Of a stretch of 35,551 nt of DNA, positions 1-35,551 are shown in pieces; position 1 is the stretch's first letter; each line of letters opens with the position of its first letter. The notes below the pieces were generated by a model. The model worked only from the letters and a program-made list of their open reading frames with translations. It was not told the DNA's origin and did no database searches. Where the stretch lies: assembly GCA_964582565.1 (NCBI GenBank), contig CAZOSY010000003.1, positions 2,178 through 37,728 on the forward strand. The letters are read 5' to 3'. Source of the stretch: an uncultured Bacteroidales bacterium (lineage in GTDB: Bacteria; Bacteroidota; Bacteroidia; Bacteroidales; CAZZDX01). The position numbers and the translations under genes are program-made.

Positions 1-128
1 CAACGTCTCTACAATGCATTGTAACGATCTACCTATGGTTTAAAAAAAAATTGGCTACCAAGTTCGGCTACTGACGAATGACGAATGACGAATTTTAGCC
101 AATTGATAATATGTTCACAAATTTTATG

Positions 129-165: not shown

Positions 166-885
166 ATGAAAATATTTAATCTGTCTGTAATCTTATTACT
201 TATATCATTTATAACTGCATTTAATAGTCATAATGATAAAAACAAAATTAAAGAGCAAGGTACTTTTATAATATCAAATAATAATCCACAAAATATTAAA
301 GAGCTTCCTTATACACGATATCATGTAAAATCCGGTATAGCAGAATACAATTTAACAGGCATACAAACAGGCACAGAGACAATATATTTTGATAAATGGG
401 GGATGCGTGAAGCAAAATATACAAAAGCAATAGTTACAATATTTGGTATGACTAAAAATTTGAATACCATGGAACTTACTGATAATAACTGGCATTATTC
501 TATTGATTTTGATACAAAAACAGGAACAAAATACAAAAACGACTCTCTGCAAATACAGGCACAACAAATGGAGACAAACGACCTGGTAATGATAGGAGAA
601 GAAAATATGAAAAAAATAGGTGGAGAAAAAACAGGCACAGAAAAAATTGCAGGCAAAACATGTGATATATGGAAAATAGAAAAAATAGGAGCTAAAATTT
701 GGCTTTGGAAAGGTATTTCTTTAAAAACTTATGTTAATATGCTGGGAATGGAAATGACTAATATTGCAACAAAAATTGATATAAATACTGATATCCCTGA
801 AAGTAAATTTGTAATTCCTGCAGATATAATTATTACAGAAACTACAAAAAAAACAAATAGCAGACATAATTATTATATAAAATAA
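166..885 (+). CDS. hypothetical secreted protein
   Basis: The ORF track gives 85..885. I prefer the internal ATG at 166, where MKIFNLSVILLLISFITAF is a signal-like hydrophobic N-terminus, because the promoter box lies inside the longer ORF. I recognised no family motif. Confidence 0.5.
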   Translation: MKIFNLSVILLLISFITAFNSHNDKNKIKEQGTFIISNNNPQNIKELPYTRYHVKSGIAEYNLTGIQTGTETIYFDKWGMREAKYTKAIVTIFGMTKNLNTMELTDNNWHYSIDFDTKTGTKYKNDSLQIQAQQMETNDLVMIGEENMKKIGGEKTGTEKIAGKTCDIWKIEKIGAKIWLWKGISLKTYVNMLGMEMTNIATKIDINTDIPESKFVIPADIIITETTKKTNSRHNYYIK

Positions 886-974: not shown

Positions 975-3900
975 ATGAGACCTGATTTTAACGAAATATG
1001 CAAAAAACGTATCATTGTCTTTGATGGAGCAATGGGAACCAATATACAAAATTACAACTTAACTGATGATGATTTTGGAGGTAAAGACGGATGTAATGAA
1101 ATATTAAATATCTCCCGTCCTGATATTATCCGCCAAATACATGCATCTTTTTTTAAAGCAGGCAGTGATATTGTTGAGACCAATACTTTTGGCGCTAATG
1201 CCATTGTCCTGAAAGAATATGGAATATCAGACAAAGATTATGAACTGAATAAACATGCTGCTCAATTAGCCAAGTCCGTTGCTAATGATTTTTCAACAAA
1301 AGATAAACCAAGATGGGTTGCTGGCTCAATAGGACCGGGGACAAAATTGCCATCTCTTTTACAAATAACTTTTTCAGAGATAAAAACAGCTTATCGTCGT
1401 CAGGTGCAGGGATTGTTAGATGGTGGTGTTGATATGTTAATTACAGAGACATCGCAGGACTTATTACAGATTAAAGCCGCTTTGGTTGCTATTTTTGAAA
1501 TATTTAAAGAAAGAAAAATCAAAATACCTGTCATTACACAGGTAACTATGGAAGATACAGATGTTATGTTGCTTGGCTCTGATATGCTCACTGTAATCAC
1601 CGCTTTATCTCCTTTCCCTGTTGATGTATTAGGGATAAACTGTGCCACAGGACCTAAGCCAATGAGAAAACACATAAGAACTTTGGCTAAATACAGCAAA
1701 AAACTTATTTCTGTCCAACCTAATGCAGGATTGCCTGAAAATATAAATGGTAAATTAACATATAAACTACAACCAGAAGAATTTGCCTCTGATGTAAAAT
1801 ATTTTGCAGAAGAATTAGGTGCTAATATTGTTGGCGGATGCTGTGGGACAACCCCGGAATATCTTAAATTAGTTGCAGACAATGTTAAAAATATTATACC
1901 TAAAATCAGAAATCCAAAATTGGAGCCGGCAGCAGCAAGTTTATATAATGCTGTTCCTTATGATACAACACCTAAGCCCTTGATAATCGGAGAACGGGCT
2001 AATGCAAACGGGTCTAAAAAATTCAGAGAATATCTTCTTAGTAATGATATGAATGGAATGCTCTCTGTTATAAAAAAACAAGAACAGGAACAAGCTCATA
2101 TTATTGATGTTTGTGTTGCTTATACAGGTCTTGATGAACAAAAATTAATGAACGCTTTTATTCAACGATTAAATACTGATTGTCAAATCCCTCTCATGAT
2201 TGATTCTACTGAAATATCTGTAATTGAAAATGCTTTGCAACGTATTGGAGGAAAAGCAATAATAAATTCTGTTAATCTTGAAGACAAAGGAAAACATTTA
2301 GGGAAAATATTACAGTTATGTAAAAAATATGGTGCTGCTGTTGTAGCTCTTACTATTGACGAAGATGGTATGGCTAAAACTGCTGACAAAAAAGTAGAAA
2401 TTGCACATCGTATATATGATATAGCTGTAAATGAATATAACATTCTGCCGGAAGATATATTTTTTGATACATTAACATTTACTCTTGGAAGTGGTGCCAA
2501 AGAATATCGCAATGCTGCCGTAGAATCTATGAATGCTATAAAAAGAATTAAATCAGAACTGCCAGATGTTAAGACCATATTAGGCGTATCAAATGTATCT
2601 TTTGGATTAAAACCGGCAATAAGACATCGGCTTAATTCTGTGTTCCTTGCCAATGCTATAAAATACGGATTAGATGCTGCCATATTACACCCGGGAAAAA
2701 TAATATCTTTACATAAACTAAAACAAAAAGAAAAAAATATATTAGAAAATCTGATTTATAACACAAAAGAAAACGGAAAAAATCCTATTACCGAGATATT
2801 AAATTATTATGAGACACATGAAATAAAAAAGGACACTACTGAAGAATTAGAAAAATTATCAGTTGAACAACGGTTAAAAAAAAGAATTATTGATAGCAAC
2901 AACATAGGATTAGAAGAAGATTTGAAAGAATGTCTGAAAAACACTTCTGCTCTTGATATAATTAATAAAATATTACTTGACGGAATGAAGACAGTGGGCA
3001 AACTGTTTGGTTCAGGAGAAATGCAACTGCCTTTTGTTCTTCAATCTGCCGAGACAATGAAGACAGCAGTATCTTTACTCAAACCCTTTATGGAGAAAAA
3101 AACTCAGGCACAAGCAAGGGCATCTGCTATAATTGCTACTGTCAAAGGCGATGTTCACGATATAGGCAAAAATCTTGTAGATATTATATTAACTAATAAT
3201 GGGTTTAAAATATTTAATCTCGGTACAAAACAACCTGTTGAGTCAATATTAAAAGCATACAAGGACTCAAAAGTTGACATTATTGGAATGAGTGGATTAT
3301 TAGTGAGGTCAACTATTATAATGAAAGAATATCTGGAAGTAATGAATGAAAAAAATATATTGCCACCTGTAATTCTTGGAGGCGCAGCTCTTACACGAAA
3401 ATATGTAGAAAAAACTCTTGCTGATATTTATAATGGTGATGTATATTATGCCAAAGATGCTTTTGAAGCCCTTTCAATATTAACAAAAATATCTGATAAT
3501 AAAAAAAATAAATTATCTAAAAAAATCAGTAAAAAATCTGTAATTTATGATAAATCTGTTTCAGTAATAAAACCTAATATCAAACAAGAACCAAAACAAA
3601 ATCCTGTTAAAAATGTTATACCTCCAACTTCTCCTTTTTGGGGAACAAAAGTTGTAAAAGATATTCCTTTATCAAATATTCTGCCTTTTTTAAATAAAGA
3701 CACTCTGTATAAATTGCACTGGGGAATAAAAAAAGGCAAAAAATCAAAAGATGAATATACTAAAATAATTGACACTGAATTTGAGCCTATACTTAAAAAA
3801 CTTATACAAAAGGCAAAAAAACAAAATCTTATACAAGCTAAATTAATATATGGATATTTCCCTTGCAATTCTTATAAAAACAGCTTACTGATATACAAAA

Positions 3901-4506: not shown

Positions 4507-5463
4507 ATGAAAGTTACTGAACATCTAAAAAATACTGATAAGCCCATTTTTAGTTTTGAGATAATACCACCATTACGCGGGAAAAACAGTAATAACATTA
4601 TCAGGATTGTAGAACAATTGCAACAATTTAAGCCACCTTTTATTGATGTTACAAGCCATTCTTCTAAAATATATTATGAAAAAGATAAAGATGGTAAAGA
4701 AAAAAGATATATTACAAAAAAAAGACCAGGAACAACAGGTATATGCGGTGTTATACAAAACAGATTTAATATAGACACTGTTGCTCATATATTATGTAGT
4801 GGGTTTACAAGAGAAGAAACAGAAGATGTTCTTATTGAACTAAACTTTCTTGGAATACAAAATTTATTGCTTTTATACGGAGATGAAATAAATTATAAAA
4901 AAAATATAGAGAAAAACAGAACAGTAAATTTTTCTACTATTGACCTTATAAAACAAGTTAAAAATCTTAAAGATGCTAAATATATTGACGAAGTTATAAA
5001 TCCTGAGCCAATAGATTTCTGTATAGGCGTAGCTGCTTATCCTGAAAAACATTTTAAAGCTAAAACTCTAAAAGATGATATAAATTATCTGAAACAAAAA
5101 GTTGATGCAGGAGCCGATTATATTGTAACTCAAATGTTTTTTGATAATAACTATTTCTTTGATTTTGTAAAACTGTGCAGAGATGCAGGTATAACAGTTC
5201 CTGTCATCCCGGGTATAAAAATCCTTAACAAACAAAACCAGATAAACACTATACCTGAAAATTTCTATGTTAAAATACCTGAAACATTAAAAAATCAATT
5301 AACACAAAATCCTGAAAATGCCAGAGAAACAGGTATTAACTGGAGTATAAAACAATGTAAAGAACTGATAAATAATGGAGTAAAAAGCATTCATTTTTAT
5401 ATTATGAATGATACAAGTTCTGTTATACAGGTTATTAATAAACTTAACCTGAATAATTCATAA
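4507..5463 (+). CDS. metF: 5,10-methylenetetrahydrofolate reductase
   Basis: 318 aa. The N-terminal FSFEIIPP motif, the YPEKH segment and GADYIVTQMFFD are typical of MetF. The gene lies directly downstream of metH. Confidence 0.9.
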   Translation: MKVTEHLKNTDKPIFSFEIIPPLRGKNSNNIIRIVEQLQQFKPPFIDVTSHSSKIYYEKDKDGKEKRYITKKRPGTTGICGVIQNRFNIDTVAHILCSGFTREETEDVLIELNFLGIQNLLLLYGDEINYKKNIEKNRTVNFSTIDLIKQVKNLKDAKYIDEVINPEPIDFCIGVAAYPEKHFKAKTLKDDINYLKQKVDAGADYIVTQMFFDNNYFFDFVKLCRDAGITVPVIPGIKILNKQNQINTIPENFYVKIPETLKNQLTQNPENARETGINWSIKQCKELINNGVKSIHFYIMNDTSSVIQVINKLNLNNS

Positions 5464-5623
5464 GTTTTCGTTATGAGAGTTGAAAGTGCCAATAGAATTG
5501 GAAAGCACAGGATTGAGCATCGGAGATGTAGCAGAGCTACATTGAGAAGCGAAATCCGAGCATTTTCAATTATAGCAGGCAATTTCAACTCGTAATAGAT
5601 AATTTATGAATTATTCAGGTTAA
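5444..5623. repeat. 180-nt structured element E1 (unclassified ncRNA or MITE-like)
   Basis: Perfect 20-bp inverted arms TTAACCTGAATAATTCATAA (5444-5463) and TTATGAATTATTCAGGTTAA (5604-5623). Inner pairing is GAGTTGAAA/TTTCAACTC, and an internal hairpin is ATGTAGC-AGA-GCTACAT. The core is alignable to 9255-9397. Confidence 0.6.
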
Positions 5624-5770
5624 ACTTATTTGAATTATTTCTGGCATTAATTTTGATTATATATTTTTTAAAATGCCATATAAATGAATTAAAATTAAAA
5701 TGTTTAATATTGTTTAAAATTTTTTTTACAGACACTAATAATTTATAAATATATTTAAAATCAAAAAATT

Positions 5771-6918: not shown

Positions 6919-6985
6919 GTTCACAAATTTGTTAAATTCTTAACAACATCATCAGTTAGTCATGTTTGGCTACTGATTGCAAATT

Positions 6986-7048
6986 CCGTTGTAAATCCCG
7001 CATTTATACCGTTGGATATTATCCTACGGGATTTACCAACGGGGTAAA
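6986..7048. repeat. P-family hairpin repeat (CCGTTGG / CCAACGGGGTAAA / CCTACGGG motifs)
   Basis: TTTATACCGTTGGAT (7003-7017) and TTTACCAACGGGGTAAA (7032-7048) recur at 35364-35378 and 35393-35409. CCGTTGTAAATCCCG (6986-7000) is an alternative partner for CGGGATTTACCAACGG (7027-7042). Confidence 0.6.
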
Positions 7049-7074
7049 CTTTTGAATAAAGAAAATTGACTAAG

Positions 7075-7328
7075 GGATTCTAACAAAAGATTCCTCACTG
7101 CGTTCGGAATGACAGTTAATTATTTTTAGGTGGGTAAAGAGAGGCGTTTCGCCTTAGGCGAAACGCCTCTCTTTACCCATAATATATTAACCAAAATTAT
7201 CATTCCGAATGGAGCACATTCACTGGGTTCAGTGTAAACTCCACGGAATGAGGAATCTCAAGCTAAATTAAAATAGAGTAGATGGTAAAATACTATTTTA
7301 TGTAGCACCTCAAAATAATATTTAGCCA
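7075..7328. repeat. R-family nested-palindrome element, copy 1
   Basis: Central 23-bp perfect stem with a 3-nt loop (7131-7179). The middle arms are TTCGGAATGA/TCATTCCGAA. The outer arms are GATTCCTCA/TGAGGAATC (7089-7257). A 3-prime tail of about 70 nt follows. Direct copy of 9446-9675. Confidence 0.8.
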
Positions 7329-7363
7329 TAATTATTTTTTTTCTCGTCTTGACAAATTTTATG

Positions 7364-7371
7364 TAAATTTG
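7364..7371 (+). promoter_or_regulatory. Bacteroidota-type -7 promoter box TAAATTTG
   Basis: Lies 26 nt upstream of the ATG at 7397, within ACAAATTTTATGTAAATTTGT. That string is shared with 117-137 and partly with 24024-24045. Confidence 0.5.
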
Positions 7372-7396
7372 TCTTTTTTAATTAAAATATATAATT

Positions 7397-9178
7397 ATGT
7401 CAGGAAAAACATTTGTAGAAAAAATTTTAGGTGCAAAAAAAAACAGTATAGTTTTCAAAAAACCAAATATTGTCTTAACGCATGATAATACGGCAAGTAT
7501 TGAAAAAACATTTAAAAAAATGGGAGGAGATAAAGTTTCTGACCCAAATCAGTTATTAATTGTCTTAGACCATAATGCTCCGCCAACAAATGCGAAATTA
7601 GCAAATCAATATCAGGGAATAAGGAATTTTGTAAAATATCAGGGAATAAAAAAATTCTATGATGCAGGCATGGGAATTTGCCATCAATTGATGGCAAATC
7701 ATGCTGAACCCGGGATGTTGATTGCAGGAAGCGACAGTCATACCTGCACAGCCGGTGCCTTTAATACTTTAGCTGTTGGTATTGACAGAACAGAATCTGC
7801 CGGCTTATGGAAAAGAGAAGAGACATGGTTTCGTGTGCCTGAATCTATTAAAATTACTCTTAAAGGAAAATTAAATAAAGGAGTATATGCAAAAGATATC
7901 TCTCTCTGGATAATCGGTATGCTCGGCTCTGCCGGTGCTAACTATATGTCAATAGAATATCATGGACAAGGAGTAGAAACATTAACTATTGCACAACGAA
8001 TGACTTTAGCTAATCTTGCTTCTGAAATGGGAGCAAAAAATGCTGTGTTTCCTCCTGATAAAGTTTTAGCTAATTATTATGGAAAAGATAAAATTTCCGG
8101 AGTGTGGGCTGACCATGATGCAGAATATTTTAAAGAAATAGATATTAACTTAAATGATATTTTCCCGGTAGTTGCTGCTCCGCATTATGTTGACAATATA
8201 AAAGCTGTGTCAGAAGTTCAGGGCACAAAAGTAAATCAGGGATTTCTTGGAACCTGCACAAATGGTCGTCTCGAAGATTTACTTGTTGCATCCGAAATCC
8301 TTGAGAATAAAAAAATATCTGATGGATTTCAGTTAATTGTAACTCCGGCTTCAAAAGATATATATTTACAAGCTATTGAACAGGGAATAATCTCTAAACT
8401 GATGAAAGCAGGGGCAACAATACTCTCTGCATCTTGCGGACCTTGTCTGGGACTGGGGCAAGGCATTCCTGCTGACGGTTTTAATGTGATTTCTACTGCT
8501 AACAGAAACTTTTTGGGGAGAATGGGTAATAAAAATGCTAATATCTATTTAGCTTCACCGGCTTGTGTTGCTTATTCTGCTATTAAAGGTGAAATAACTG
8601 ACCCAAGAGGAATGCAATATAATGACAAATTTCCTTTTTCTAAAAAACAAACTTCCAGTGTTGAAATAAAAAAAGATGATAATCGTAAAGCAAATGGCAT
8701 CTGGAATTATAAAAATATTGATGACTTGAATACAGACCAGATGTTTGCAGGTAATCTGACATATAATATATTAAGTTCAGATGCAGAAGATATTATGCCT
8801 CATTTATTTAAGGGTTTTGATGAAAATTTTGCAGAAAATCTGCAAAAAAATGATATTATTATAGCAGGCAATAATTTTGGTTGTGGTAGCTCACGCGAAC
8901 ATCCTGCTGTTGGCTTGTCTTATGCAGGTGTTAAAGCTGTTATTGTTAAATCTGTTAATAGAATATTTTTTCGCTCTTCTGTCAATCAGGGCTTGCCTGT
9001 AATTATACTTGCCCAAGCTGTTGAGGCATTTAAACATGGAGATAAAGTAAATATAAATTTTGAAAAAGGTATTATAAATATTAATGATAAAATATTTAAT
9101 TTTGCTCCGCTCCCTGATAAACTAATGGAAATCTTTAAAGCAAAAGGACTGGTAAATTTTATTAAAAAAAACAGGTAA
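7397..9178 (+). CDS. aconitase-family dehydratase, fused LeuC-like large and LeuD-like small subunit (3-isopropylmalate or homoaconitate dehydratase type)
   Basis: 593 aa. The large-subunit motifs are GSDSHTCTAG plus the Fe-S ligand cysteines in GTCTNGR and SCGPCLG. The C-terminal ~170 aa carries the small-subunit motif GNNFGCGSSREH. Substrate cannot be assigned from sequence alone. Confidence 0.8.
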   Translation: MSGKTFVEKILGAKKNSIVFKKPNIVLTHDNTASIEKTFKKMGGDKVSDPNQLLIVLDHNAPPTNAKLANQYQGIRNFVKYQGIKKFYDAGMGICHQLMANHAEPGMLIAGSDSHTCTAGAFNTLAVGIDRTESAGLWKREETWFRVPESIKITLKGKLNKGVYAKDISLWIIGMLGSAGANYMSIEYHGQGVETLTIAQRMTLANLASEMGAKNAVFPPDKVLANYYGKDKISGVWADHDAEYFKEIDINLNDIFPVVAAPHYVDNIKAVSEVQGTKVNQGFLGTCTNGRLEDLLVASEILENKKISDGFQLIVTPASKDIYLQAIEQGIISKLMKAGATILSASCGPCLGLGQGIPADGFNVISTANRNFLGRMGNKNANIYLASPACVAYSAIKGEITDPRGMQYNDKFPFSKKQTSSVEIKKDDNRKANGIWNYKNIDDLNTDQMFAGNLTYNILSSDAEDIMPHLFKGFDENFAENLQKNDIIIAGNNFGCGSSREHPAVGLSYAGVKAVIVKSVNRIFFRSSVNQGLPVIILAQAVEAFKHGDKVNINFEKGIININDKIFNFAPLPDKLMEIFKAKGLVNFIKKNR

Positions 9179-9236
9179 TTTGCAATAACGAATATCCGAA
9201 AATTATGTGGGCAAATTGTATTTTTATAAAATATAA

Positions 9237-9415
9237 AGGGGAGTTCTAATAATTGGTTTTGTATATGAAAGTGAGCGAAAAATATCAGTATGAGGCGGAG
9301 GGTAAAATATTCCGCAGGCATAGCCATAGCTATGGTGAGGAAAGATTTTGCCCGATAACGAAATAATGATATTTTGCAGCCACTTGTAATAAAAAGTAAT
9401 TATTAGAACTCCCCT
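9237..9415. repeat. 179-nt structured element E2 (homolog of E1)
   Basis: Perfect 18-bp inverted arms AGGGGAGTTCTAATAATT (9237-9254) and AATTATTAGAACTCCCCT (9398-9415). Internal pairings are AAAATATCA/TGATATTTT and GCGGA/TCCGC, plus a CATAGC/GCTATG hairpin. Core blocks are shared with E1. Confidence 0.6.
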
Positions 9416-9445
9416 AAAGATATAGAAAAAAATCAATTGCTTAAT

Positions 9446-9675
9446 GGATTCTAACAAAAGATTCCTCACTGCGTTCGGAATGACAGTTAATTGTTTTTAG
9501 GTGGGGAAAGAGAGGCGTTTCGCCTTAAGCGAAACGCCTCTCTTTCCCCATAATATATTAACCAAAATTGTCATTCCGAATGGAGCTAAGCGGAATGAGG
9601 AATCTCAAGCTAAATTAAAATAGGCTAGCTGGTAAAATATTATTTTATGTAGCACCTCAAAATAATATTTAGCCA
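9446..9675. repeat. R-family nested-palindrome element, copy 2
   Basis: Same order and orientation as 7075-7328. The central palindrome at 9502-9550 has 22-bp arms. The right inner segment is shorter than in copy 1. Confidence 0.8.
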
Positions 9676-9762
9676 AAAAAAAGTTACTTTATAAACAAAT
9701 TTTAAACAAGTAATAGTTAAATTGTTGTTGCTATATGCTTGTTCTGTGAGTTATATAAACAA

Positions 9763-22272: not shown

Positions 22273-24027
22273 TTGAAAAAAATTATTTACATATTATTCA
22301 TTCTGCTTTTTTGTTTTGTTTTTAAATTAAATGCGCAAAACTATACTTTATCATTAGAAAACAATAGTGATAAAGACAATAAAATGATTAAGAAATTAAA
22401 TTATAAAAAGCATTTTTATACTAAAACAGAAAGAGAAAAAGAAATAAAAAATATTTTATTTTGGCTTTACAATAATTCATATATAACTGCAAGATTTGAC
22501 AGTATTATTGAAGATTCATTAAATTTATCTGCATATCTGTTTGTCGGAAACAAATATACATTAGCATCTGTTAATAAAGGAAATGTTGATAAGACATTAC
22601 TTAGTGAAGTTGGCTATAAAGAAAATTTTTATTCACCTAAAGCAGGCAAAGTTTTTCAATATAAAGAGATACGAACTTTAATTGAAAAAATACTTATTTT
22701 TTGTGAAAACAATGGCTATCCTTTTGCTTTAATTAAATTAGACAGCATAAGCATTGATTCAAACTGTTTACAGGCAAGTTTAAATCTTAATAAAAATCTT
22801 AAAATTAATATTGACAGCATTATTATTAAAGGAAATGCAAAAATTTCTAATACCTATCTTTACTCTTATTTAGGAATAAAACCAAAAAATATTTATAATG
22901 AATCAAAAATAAACAAAATAAATACCAGATTAAAAGAATTACAATTTGTTAAAAAAACAAAACCCATTGATATAATATTTGTAAAAAATGATGCAAAAAT
23001 TTTGCTTTATATAGATAAAAAAAATGTTAGCCAGTTTAATGGCATTTTAGGTGTTTTACCTAATAATAGGACAGGAAAAATTTTGCTAAATGGTGATGTT
23101 CATTTAAAATTGCTCAATTCATTTGGAAAAGGAGAACTAATTGATTTTAACTGGCGTAAAATAGAACAAAACACTCAAAACTTAAAAACTAATTTTGTCT
23201 TGCCTTTTATCTTATCTACTCCTTTTGGCATTGACTTTAAATTTTCTATTTACAAAAAAGATACTTCTTATCTTAATATAAATTCTAATATTGGTATTCA
23301 GTATTTATTTAAAGGGAATAATTATATAAAAGTTTTTTTAGACAATCGTAAATCTTCATTAGTTAGCACTACGGGATTGAAAAATATAACTGTGCTACCT
23401 TCTTATGCTGATATTTCGACAATGTTTTACGGCTTAGAACTAAATAATGAAAAACTTGACTATGGTCTCAACCCAAGAAAAGGTTATCAAATAAAACTCT
23501 CGGCAGCTGCAGGGAATAAAAATATTAAAAAAAATGATAAAATAAACCCTGATATATATGACAAATTAAAATTATCAACAACACAATATAAAATAGAATC
23601 TGATTTTGGTGTGTTTTTACCTTTGTTTCAAAAAAATACAATCTTTATTAATATAAAAAGTGCAATTATTGATAATCCAAATCTTTTTGAAAATGAACTT
23701 TACAGAATCGGAGGATTAAAAACACTTAGAGGTTTTGACGAAGAATCTATTAATGCTTCATTATATTCAATTTTAAATATTGAATACAGATATCTGTTAG
23801 AACAAAATTCTTACATATATCTTTTTTGGAATGGGGCATATTATGAAAACAAATCTGTTAATCCGCCTGAAGTGAGTTGCGACAGACCTTATGGCTTTGG
23901 TGCTGGAATTAGTTTTGAAACAAAAATAGGGATATTCTCTATTAATTATGCTCTTGGAAAACAATTTAATAACCCTATATATTTCAAATCTGCAAAAATC
24001 CATTTTGGGGTGGTTAATTATTTTTAA
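22273..24027 (+). CDS. Omp85/BamA-family outer-membrane barrel protein (surface antigen D15-like)
   Basis: 584 aa. Starts at TTG, with a signal peptide ending NAQ. It has a POTRA-like N-terminal half, an L6-loop-type motif LRGFDE and an aromatic C-terminal residue (GVVNYF). Confidence 0.7.
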   Translation: MKKIIYILFILLFCFVFKLNAQNYTLSLENNSDKDNKMIKKLNYKKHFYTKTEREKEIKNILFWLYNNSYITARFDSIIEDSLNLSAYLFVGNKYTLASVNKGNVDKTLLSEVGYKENFYSPKAGKVFQYKEIRTLIEKILIFCENNGYPFALIKLDSISIDSNCLQASLNLNKNLKINIDSIIIKGNAKISNTYLYSYLGIKPKNIYNESKINKINTRLKELQFVKKTKPIDIIFVKNDAKILLYIDKKNVSQFNGILGVLPNNRTGKILLNGDVHLKLLNSFGKGELIDFNWRKIEQNTQNLKTNFVLPFILSTPFGIDFKFSIYKKDTSYLNINSNIGIQYLFKGNNYIKVFLDNRKSSLVSTTGLKNITVLPSYADISTMFYGLELNNEKLDYGLNPRKGYQIKLSAAAGNKNIKKNDKINPDIYDKLKLSTTQYKIESDFGVFLPLFQKNTIFINIKSAIIDNPNLFENELYRIGGLKTLRGFDEESINASLYSILNIEYRYLLEQNSYIYLFWNGAYYENKSVNPPEVSCDRPYGFGAGISFETKIGIFSINYALGKQFNNPIYFKSAKIHFGVVNYF

Positions 24028-24036
24028 AATTTTATG

Positions 24037-24044
24037 TAAGTTTG
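24037..24044 (+). promoter_or_regulatory. Bacteroidota-type -7 promoter box TAAGTTTG
   Basis: Lies within AAATTTTATGTAAGTTTGTAA, 61 nt upstream of the ATG at 24105. The extended motif is shared with 119-139 and 7354-7373. Confidence 0.45.
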
Positions 24045-24104
24045 TAATTGCTAATTTTTAATTTTTTAACTGAATTTTCTTGAAATATAAAAATATTAAA
24101 ACAA

Positions 24105-28560: not shown

Positions 28561-28572
28561 TTTTACAAGTAT

Positions 28573-28705
28573 GAGTCCACTCCGAAAAGTCAAAATTGTG
28601 TCATTCCGAATTTAGTTCGGAATCTCTAATTTCAATAATATCAAAAGATGCTGAAACAAGTTCAGCATGACAAATAAGTAAATATCTACTTTTCGGAGCG
28701 GACTC
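28573..28705. repeat. 133-nt nested-hairpin element E3
   Basis: The closing helix is GAGTCCACTCCGAAAAGT / ACTTTTCGGAGCGGACTC (17 of 18 pairs). The inner hairpins are ATTCCGAA-TTTAG-TTCGGAAT and ATGCTGAA-ACAAG-TTCAGCAT. It shares the GTCATTCCGAA motif with the R family. Confidence 0.7.
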
Positions 28706-28754
28706 AAGATTAATAACATCAAAATAAATAATAAATTTTAAAAAAATATATACA

Positions 28755-30091: not shown

Positions 30092-30412
30092 ATGGATATA
30101 AAAATACTTGCTCAGGAAATAAAACAACACTTAAATATACATTTGGACGGAAATGTTTCAGATATTGTTTTTTTTGGGTCTCAAATTAAAGGAAACTCTA
30201 AACCTGACTCTGATTATGATGTGTTAATTGTACTAAAAAGCAATTACAATAGAAAAATAAAACGGTTAATTAACGATTTGTGCTATGACTTTGATTTAAA
30301 ATATGACATTTTTCTTGATACACAAATAATTTCTGAAAATGAATTAAAAGTTGGATTAAGAGGTAAGCATCCGATATTTAAAACAGCATTAAAGGAAGGA
30401 CTCCACGCATGA
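30092..30412 (+). CDS. minimal nucleotidyltransferase (MNT) antitoxin-type protein
   Basis: 106 aa. GSQIKGNSKPDSDYDVLIV matches the GSxxxG...SDxDxxV pol-beta nucleotidyltransferase signature. Its stop overlaps the next start (ATGA). Confidence 0.8.
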   Translation: MDIKILAQEIKQHLNIHLDGNVSDIVFFGSQIKGNSKPDSDYDVLIVLKSNYNRKIKRLINDLCYDFDLKYDIFLDTQIISENELKVGLRGKHPIFKTALKEGLHA

Positions 30413-30810
30413 TTAATGATAAAGATAGACAAGTCCTGATTGAATATCGTCTCAATCAGGCAAAAAAGGTAATATTAGAGGTTGAACAATTAATAGCTGC
30501 TGATTTATTAACAGTTGCTGTAAATAGAATCTATTATGGCATATTTTATTGTTTAAATGCACTTGCTCTTAAATATAATTTCCAATCTTCAAAGCATTTA
30601 CAATTAATTGGTTGGTTTAATAAGACATTTATCAAATCGGGATTGATAGAAAATAAATTTGGCAAGATTTTGCGTGATGCTTTTAAAAATAGAACTGATG
30701 GAGATTATGCTCCATTTATAGAATTTAGTAAATCCGATGTAATTGATATGCAAAAAGATATGAAAAAATTTATTGAAAGAATAGAATCTTTTATAAAAAA
30801 ATTAAGATAA
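30409..30810 (+). CDS. HEPN domain protein (toxin partner of MNT)
   Basis: 133 aa and all-helical. The NRIYYGIFYCLNALAL block and the C-terminal NRTDGDY are typical of MNT-linked HEPN proteins. The 4-nt overlap with the MNT gene fits a translationally coupled pair. Confidence 0.7.
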   Translation: MINDKDRQVLIEYRLNQAKKVILEVEQLIAADLLTVAVNRIYYGIFYCLNALALKYNFQSSKHLQLIGWFNKTFIKSGLIENKFGKILRDAFKNRTDGDYAPFIEFSKSDVIDMQKDMKKFIERIESFIKKLR

Positions 30811-35363: not shown

Positions 35364-35495
35364 TTTATACCGTTGGATTAACCCTAGGTAATTTTACCAA
35401 CGGGGTAAATATCCTACGGCATTTATATTTTATTGAAAATTATTGTTAAATTGTTTACCCCGTGAAATTCCGCGAAGCGGAATATTTCACTGGGG
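35364..35495. repeat. P-family hairpin repeats at the window edge
   Basis: TTTATACCGTTGGAT and TTTACCAACGGGGTAAA (35364-35409) duplicate the 7003-7048 arms. ATCCTACGG follows. A second hairpin is CCCCGTGAAATTCCGC-GAA-GCGGAATATTTCACTGGGG (35458-35495). Confidence 0.6.
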
Positions 35496-35551
35496 TTAAA
35501 TTGTTAAATTTTGTTGTTTTGTTTTTATACTCACCCCTAACCCCTCTCTAC

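Follow-up and report, generated by a model that had tools for sequence, protein, structure and literature searches.

A 35,551-nt stretch of a contig from an uncultured Bacteroidales bacterium (CAZOSY010000003.1, assembly GCA_964582565.1), hereafter the window, holds an aconitase-family gene between two palindrome-bearing repeats in the same orientation, copy A upstream and copy B downstream, and raises the question of what these repeats are and whether they have anything to do with the gene that they bracket. The answer lies largely in a 25-nt hairpin that is common to both copies and that resembles the recognition sites of the Ssn nucleases, enzymes first described, together with these sites, in 2025, for the most part in Neisseria and other Pseudomonadati (Chenal et al., 2025; PMC11893778). 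The pair is unlikely to be a device specific to this locus or an RNA gene, and is best read as a Bacteroidota form of the Ssn/NTS-type system of hairpin repeats. Each copy is probably a truncated, non-autonomous, Ssn-associated mosaic repeat, a 5'-truncated derivative of an ssn-like gene together with its flanking recognition hairpins. The window itself is AT-rich (30% GC across its length) and encodes proteins typical of Bacteroidota (type IX secretion system (T9SS) sorting domains, DUF6340, MetH, MTHFR and GyrB), and salt-lake and marine metagenomes contain DNA nearly identical to it.

The outer and middle helices of the repeat are built of one 25-nt unit: their left arms together form it, reading GTCATTCCGAACGCAGTGAGGAATC on the minus strand, and their right arms form it again in the opposite orientation. 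This hairpin stands alone and letter-perfect in unrelated DNA of 28-64% GC, its exact 24-mer occurring singly in six unrelated IMG/VR contigs (43-64% GC); it often adjoins sister units such as GTCATTCCGAGCGAAGCGAGGAATC or GTCGTCCTGAGCGCAGCGAAGGATC, and the left 24-mer is present six times in a wastewater Bacteroidia locus. Ssn proteins, which are small and consist of a single GIY-YIG domain, bind the dRS3-containing NTS hairpin of Neisseria, CGTCATTCCCGCGMAVGCGGGAATCYRG, solely in its single-stranded DNA form and cleave the DNA a few bases upstream of it, with no RNA binding by SsnA, the three bases before the palindrome (GTC) being important for cutting and the C after it for binding, and in many phyla motifs of this kind (SRM) lie on the flanks of ssn genes (Chenal et al., 2025). 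Our unit and NTS have GTCATTCC...GGAATC in common, which amounts to 8+6 identical flanking bases that include the critical GTC and C, and the unit can be written as GTC + ATTCC...GGAAT + C, with the oriented flanks of an SRM. The likeness extends from this short hairpin, oriented with GTCAT at its 5' and ...ATC at its 3' side and with 14 flanking bases the same as in NTS, to the many copies per genome and to the position of the units next to small single-domain GIY-YIG genes, also on both sides of them, while a repeat-flanked gene as seen here corresponds to the 'NTS-gene-NTS' arrangement discussed by the same authors. The differences are that the inner stem is ATTCC-GA...GA-GGAAT here and ATTCCCGCG... 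in NTS, that the host is an AT-rich member of the Bacteroidota, that the hairpin contains the stop codon of the nuclease gene, and that inward-facing pairs around a perfect palindrome of conserved geometry are not described in the main text of that paper. A letter-identical 25-nt site of the Ssn type thus occurs both in Bacteroidota with AT-rich genomes and in DNA whose base composition is quite unlike theirs. As a separate observation, a viral contig of 59% GC (L001/L002, about 3485-3560, minus strand) carries the exact 25-mer some 20 nt after a putative tRNA 3' end (GGTTCGATTCTAGCCCCTGCCACCA).

The initial annotation had recognized two mostly identical copies in the same orientation, at 7075-7328 (copy A) and 9446-9675 (copy B), and alignment bears this out: they are about 93% identical, with 93% identity between 7054-7215 and 9425-9586 and 94% between 7244-7331 and 9591-9678, copy A being longer by 24 bases (7216-7239 in the alignment). 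The similarity begins before these bounds, at about 7053-7059 and at 9421, where what is left of the 3' end of a GIY-YIG gene is present in both. In copy A this plus-strand remnant (7059-7109) comprises the last 17 codons of an ssn-like gene, KKID*GILTKDSSLRSE, with 88% identity over 17 aa in a tblastn search with the protein of a related locus, L131, and blastn homology to the L131 unit from 7059 onwards, and it runs into the left hairpin unit (7089-7113, minus strand), recognized as SRM-like by the exact 25-mer and the flanks shared with NTS. A 17-nt AT-rich spacer (7114-7130), a central perfect palindrome (7131-7179; 24+1+24) and a second AT-rich spacer of 19 nt (7180-7198) follow; both spacers have counterparts in homologous elements, in which the spacer length of 16-25 nt is conserved. 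The right hairpin unit (7199-7257, plus strand) has a 34-nt hairpin inserted in its loop (7210-7243) and starts with A where the family has G, and so reads ATCAT instead of GTCAT, with ATC in place of the GTC. The tail completes the copy (7258-7328, plus strand), and its last 24 nt or so (7305-7327) are an inverted copy of sequence found upstream of ssn in L131 and in L141. Copy B repeats this plan with a degenerate ssn 3'-end remnant (9421-9480, plus strand; YRKKSIA*WILTKDSSLRSE, from tblastn), a left unit (9460-9484, minus strand), a central module of spacer, palindrome (9502-9550; 22+5+22) and spacer (9487-9565), a right unit with a short loop (9570-9604, plus strand; GTCATTCCGAATGGAGCTAAGCGGAATGAGGAATC), the loop insertion being 10 nt compared with 34 nt in copy A, and a tail (9605-9675, plus strand) with the terminal inverted-repeat sequence at 9652-9674. 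GC content rises and falls along the element in a wave, at 0.5 in the units, 0.1-0.24 in the spacers and 0.55 in the palindrome.

Chance does not account for these features: neither the 25-mer nor the palindrome core was reproduced by any shuffle of the window, and the two copies fold with z-scores of -10.9 and -13.1, none of 200 shuffles folding as well. The three nested helices that had been proposed are present as stems, in copy A as an outer helix of GATTCCTCA (7089-7097) with TGAGGAATC (7249-7257) and a middle helix of TTCGGAATGA (7103-7112) with TCATTCCGAA (7200-7209) around the palindrome; what does not stand is their interpretation as evolved helices of one structure, the outer and middle ones being two inverted copies of the hairpin unit. 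The nested fold is the pairing of these two self-folding units around the palindrome, and with DNA parameters it has almost the same predicted energy as three separate hairpins (-44.4 vs -42.1 kcal/mol). A further element of the same kind lies at 28570-28712 of the window, where two inward-facing hairpin units (28600-28624, plus strand; 28647-28671, minus strand) are enclosed in an 18-bp outer stem.

The origin of the repeat is indicated by L131, where the element follows a GIY-YIG gene (Pfam E-value 1.2e-14) whose last codons, ...KDSSLRSE-stop, are the left hairpin unit. The other copies keep only the last 17-27 codons of this ssn-like gene; in L131 coordinates their starts vary from 469 to 549 and their right end is constant at about 770. 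The inverted sequence at the end of the tail, found upstream of ssn in L131 and also in L141, which carries an intact homologue, bounds a unit of about 700 bp. Thousands of homologues of 100-120 aa exist, several of which end in DSSLRSE, and homologues at 63-86% identity end in ...DSSLRSE as the translated hairpin unit; their size of 105-122 aa and single domain agree with Ssn. The repeats flank a small single-domain GIY-YIG gene in L131, L140, L141, L143, L144 (on both sides), L148/149, L170-175 and L176-181. The dispersed copies can probably be seen as truncated pieces of the nuclease gene's own 3' flank, which gives a concrete picture of how a repeat is born and goes beyond the published description. 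The same relationship explains the common spurious 'hypothetical proteins' ending in ...DSSLRSE, and the breaks in assemblies of such genomes.

The composite is conserved in other Bacteroidota. Beside the homologues of 63-86% identity the plan is again a hairpin on the minus strand, a spacer of about 20 nt, a perfect palindrome, a spacer and a hairpin on the plus strand with an expanded loop, and it is seen in L140, L143, L144 (on both sides, in direct orientation), L148/149, L170-175 and L176-181, each with a palindrome of different sequence. These palindromes have arms of 11-28 bp, loops mostly of 3 nt and spacers of 16-25 nt; the arm length of the 14 clean palindromes was reached by 0 of 200 shuffles, and a purine-rich 5' arm is found in 11 of 12 independent palindromes. 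Such a regular composite of sites with a structure-conserved palindrome likewise exceeds what has been published. In wastewater Bacteroidia (L170-L172, about 1820-2510), the identical 25-mer and a 19-nt spacer form a tandem array downstream of the ssn homologue, its copy number varying between strains with 527, 615 or 696 nt to the next gene.

That the palindromic element is multi-copy is confirmed by a scan of metagenome contigs with a two-arm pattern for the palindrome, which returned nine loci in three JGI metagenomes that represent eight distinct sites; all nine are true copies in DNA of 26-29% GC beside ordinary genes, and ten sites of the element are known in all. In four sequencing runs (Logan contigs) the element has about 5-30 times the depth of its single-copy flanks, with contigs breaking at its edges, which suggests about 5-30 copies per genome, an approximate figure from assembly depth. 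The copies are modular. The 31-nt left unit is missing in L133 and L136 and the tail in L132, and in L134 the hairpin-palindrome-hairpin segment is inverted as a whole, with an unexpanded right unit; contigs of the same metagenomes lack exactly the 79-nt central module 9487-9565 (joint 9486>9566), the joints of this module-less form lying 2 and 4 nt from the two GTCAT motifs, and in others the left unit is fused directly with the right unit's end. Viral contigs matched one palindrome arm seven times by chance and the tail not at all, and a pair of hairpins spaced by 60-90 nt was matched once, by chance, within coding sequence. The matches listed from a scan of genome contigs with the pattern GGCGTTTCGC-N1-9-GCGAAACGCC, which was too loose, were palindromes from unrelated bacteria, rich in GC and similar to terminators, with no true relative among them.

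The paired T-to-G and A-to-C difference between the central stems, which first drew attention to the element, is real (7135 T/7175 A in copy A vs 9506 G/9546 C in copy B), G-C being the family state. Among ten distinct family members 96.4% of the cells pair, and covariation goes beyond this single pair: there are two independent two-sided changes, that of window copy A (column 47/87) and a second compensated pair in L133 (45/89), a result reached by 18 of 500 shuffles. The replacement of the whole palindrome across lineages is stronger evidence of structural constraint than the compensated pairs. Of the two explanations put forward at the outset, selection on the structure and correction within the palindrome, both are compatible with the maintained pairing seen in the L133 pair and in the perfect palindromes of other lineages, and they are not separable, because the arms of a palindrome are the same sequence on opposite strands and correction of one arm by the other, through template switching or conversion, accounts for paired changes no less well than selection. 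As to whether the structure is RNA or DNA, which had been left open, the evidence points to DNA hairpins, since the stems are perfectly Watson-Crick and equal on both strands and Ssn acts on single-stranded DNA and not on RNA; the RNA alternative is unsupported, with no Rfam match. The A/G differences at 7122/7199 were considered as a second coupled change and rejected, the family consensus being G at both positions; in the nested fold 7199 stands opposite C 7113 and 7122 is unpaired.

The bracketed gene (7397-9178, plus strand) encodes a 593-aa protein of the aconitase/homoaconitase/isopropylmalate dehydratase family with fused large and small subunits (Pfam, NCBIfam). That direct repeats of about 230 bp either side of one gene might mark a cassette, and allow this gene to be excised, circularized or amplified, was a natural suggestion, and two further observations could be read in its favour: in L144 ssn itself lies between two direct composites, and at the start of one contig, L154 (1-100), the left flank of copy B runs straight into the body of copy A, with the aconitase gene after it. 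The junction is as may be expected of a circle or tandem duplication, or it may be an assembly artefact, spanning as it does less than 141 nt at the end of a contig assembled with k=141. There is no sign of excision or amplification in the depth of the gene, which equals that of its flanks in four runs (6.1 vs 5.3-5.7; 14 vs 11-15; 28.5 vs 27-28; 6.8 vs 8.4), or in the ten assemblies of the locus, all of which hold both elements at equal spacing, and the family sits singly at many other loci; a cassette of this kind is therefore hardly credible. Genomes without 7329-9675 and with a single element left behind, which had been envisaged, are absent from these ten assemblies; identical aconitase-family proteins come only from near-identical strains in which both elements are present, and the next relatives, at 78-79% identity, have other neighbours. 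The gene is an ordinary one with one element copy in each flanking intergenic region, and nothing beyond a bystander's part is seen for it: its own promoter-like motif lies outside the element, its depth equals that of its flanks and both elements are fixed in the ten assemblies. The promoter motif, of the Bacteroidota type (TAAATTTG, 7364-7371), recurs ahead of other genes. A longer motif, TTGACAAATTTTATGTAAATTTGT, is found upstream of genes at 114-137, 7349-7372 and 24022-24045 and probably carries the Bacteroidota -7 box TAnnTTTG. Two joints that resembled loss of the gene (7104>9591 and 7115>9566) were rejected as such, being short contigs from other copies of the family.

Could the copies instead be ordinary miniature inverted-repeat transposable elements (MITEs), moved in trans by a classical transposase acting on terminal inverted repeats of about 24 nt, with hairpins and palindrome as cargo? 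Such repeats are found at both ends of the ssn-bearing unit and at every tail end: L131 has GGTTAAATATTATTTTGAGGTGC at 65-87 (minus strand) and its inverse at 748-770 (plus strand), L141 has the same left repeat upstream of its intact ssn, the L131 unit lies between CAAATATAT and CAAATACAT, a possible 9-bp target duplication, and one contig joins the terminal repeats directly, skipping 649 nt, at about single-copy depth. Like Correia-type MITEs, the elements are intergenic, have a size of about 150-250 bp, inverted termini and internal deletion variants. The initial annotation would have reclassified the element as a MITE if its copies always accompanied an insertion-sequence (IS) transposase, an association that is not seen here: none of the ten sites adjoins a transposase gene, no cognate IS was found, and the parent unit bears a GIY-YIG nuclease instead. 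No clear target duplication is seen, the one candidate coming from a single locus in AT-rich DNA, and a constant 3' end with varied 5' truncation, most copies lacking the left terminal repeat, is not what cut-and-paste transposition of a repeat-bounded unit predicts; since the composite also recurs beside ssn genes with unrelated tails and terminal repeats, we regard a classical MITE as unlikely. We give still less credence to a structured RNA, either a 3' untranslated region element or a bidirectional terminator or insulator, transcribed with its neighbours and selected as RNA. The very stable predicted folding, the compensated stem changes and the position of the element, directly after the ssn stop codon and, at site B, between convergent genes, would suit it, but there is no Rfam match at the gathering score, the matches at permissive thresholds being generic hairpin noise (microRNA precursors, U12-like), no T-run follows the stem, and a terminator scan was empty at the element. 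The perfect stems, equal on both strands and with hardly any G-U pairs, fit DNA palindromes better, and SsnA does not bind RNA (Chenal et al., 2025).

The view that the copies are truncated Ssn-associated repeats, which we prefer, has difficulties of its own. The published SRM pattern, HGTCWYN(0-2)YYVSBRHN(0-5)WNVSBRGN(0-2)RNCYNB, matched no unit in a regular-expression scan of the window and related loci, the inner stem CCGA... of the unit breaking its positions S and B, and the nuclease was assigned through Pfam GIY-YIG alone, the Ssn clade being CDD cd10448. The only ssn seen beside this family, that of L131, is broken by a 41-nt palindromic insertion, and a form free of the insertion was not seen in four runs, so the elements may be relics in a host without a working copy of this ssn paralogue. 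An empty site was sought through relatives of the aconitase gene and none was found, the next relatives, 78-79% identical, being non-syntenic. Uncompensated changes occur in the palindrome too, L139 having an A.C mismatch and L134 a bulge, and at site B the palindrome is imperfect in four independent assemblies (L150, L151, L154 and L155; 9503 G>T, 9516 C>T and 9528-9530 AGC>GTA). None of the five site-B differences is compensated and the window copy (9502-9550) is perfect, which points either to decay of the one lineage's palindrome or to correction of the other's. What the sequences show is the copy number, the modular build, the connection with ssn and the conservation of the architecture; Ssn cleavage at the units, the mode of spread, mobility, function and any effect on the flanked gene are inferred. 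The 5' half of the L131 ssn has about three times single-copy depth in four runs, and a search of PDB sequences with the nuclease returned no relative. A mini-palindrome of about 40 nt at 35454-35499 of the window, CCCCRGTGAAAT...ATTTCACYGGGG, belongs to the same family as the 41-nt insertion (L131 335-375), which introduces a frameshift and a stop.

Two other known repeat systems have parts of this architecture. In the neisserial intergenic mosaic elements (NIME; dRS3-RS-dRS3; PMC1797815) short inverted-repeat hairpins likewise bracket intergenic repeat segments of 50-150 bp, a range that includes the 85-nt bracketed segment here, and the modular make-up, variable segments and GC wave are similar, as is the strain-variable array length in L170-L172. 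However, the dRS3 consensus ATTCCC-N8-GGGAAT is not fitted by the units here, ATTCC-N11-GGAAT, which in the window are single rather than in long arrays and whose inner segment is always a palindrome; the architecture is analogous to NIME, not of the same family, and NIME arrays, as stated in the paper on them (PMC1797815), had not been observed outside Neisseria. The REP, BIME and REPIN elements with their RAYT (IS200/IS605-like) transposases also form inverted doublets of a short imperfect palindrome that give a long hairpin, and are also non-autonomous, intergenic and multi-copy, with a repeat-flanked gene for the cognate enzyme and a single-stranded hairpin as its substrate. The flanked gene here, however, encodes a GIY-YIG nuclease, an enzyme without known strand-transfer activity, and not a Y1 HUH transposase (Y1_Tnp) as a RAYT would. 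REPs are lineage-specific, whereas the hairpin unit here is identical across very distant hosts.

If the copies are indeed Ssn-associated mosaic repeats, their source would be a small selfish or domesticated unit composed of an ssn-like GIY-YIG nuclease gene and its recognition hairpins, with a core composite of a minus-strand unit, an AT-rich spacer of about 17 nt, a GC-rich perfect palindrome, an AT-rich spacer of about 19 nt and a plus-strand unit, followed by the tail. By analogy with SsnA and NTS of Neisseria, each unit would take on its hairpin form in DNA that is single-stranded, as in replication, transformation or conjugation, and the cognate Ssn would bind it and nick a few bases 5' of GTCAT on the unit's own strand. 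Given inward-facing units on opposite strands, either strand would be cut once, beside the palindrome, which the nicks would then flank. The family has spread into many intergenic regions of this AT-rich Bacteroidota genome, the pairing of the palindrome being kept perhaps because it is as a DNA hairpin that the element functions or is copied, perhaps because its arms correct each other, or both. The ragged 5' and constant 3' ends could result either from copying by repair that began at a break close to the hairpins or from decay of inserted copies, and the terminal repeats and possible 9-bp duplication in L131 would fit a transposase acting in trans. The conserved geometry, with spacers 16-25 nt long, a loop of 3 nt and, in 11 of 12 independent cases, a 5' arm rich in purines, leads us to a more speculative proposal, which we think possible although the odds are against it: two inward-facing Ssn-type hairpins with a perfect palindrome between them may form an undescribed functional cis-module, in which the palindrome drives hairpin or cruciform formation and exposes the nuclease sites, and nicks next to it seed ectopic repair that copies the module, together with a variable stretch of the ssn 3' end, to intergenic sites not yet occupied. 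If so, homing-like spread of the module would explain the constant 3' and ragged 5' ends, and a gene enclosed by two modules, as ssn is in L144 and the aconitase-family gene in the window, would form a unit whose exchange is restricted or promoted.

Several other repeats and duplications were noted in the window. Directly upstream of copy B, at 9214-9438, lies an unrelated palindromic repeat with perfect 17-bp inverted termini (GGGGAGTTCTAATAATT and AATTATTAGAACTCCCC), which at a contig depth of 40-80 times its flanks is more abundant than the Ssn-type element. The intergenic region between the MTHFR and DUF6340 genes holds a third nested palindromic element (5437-5630) with 33-nt arms that are 88% complementary, and a small palindromic repeat, CCGTTGG...CCAACGGGGTAAA, occurs just upstream of copy A (6985-7045) and near the end of the window (35370-35412); metagenome contigs contain a variant junction, 7030>6848, at the first of these. 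The segment 11901-17984 holds a tandem duplication of a 3061-bp unit, 100% identical over long stretches, which gives rise to two T9SS-sorted proteins of 984 aa that have Ig/fn3-like repeats; a third paralogue, of 957 aa, adjoins them. Finally, overlapping genes for a nucleotidyltransferase (106 aa) and a HEPN protein (133 aa) at 30092-30810 are likely to constitute a toxin-antitoxin pair.

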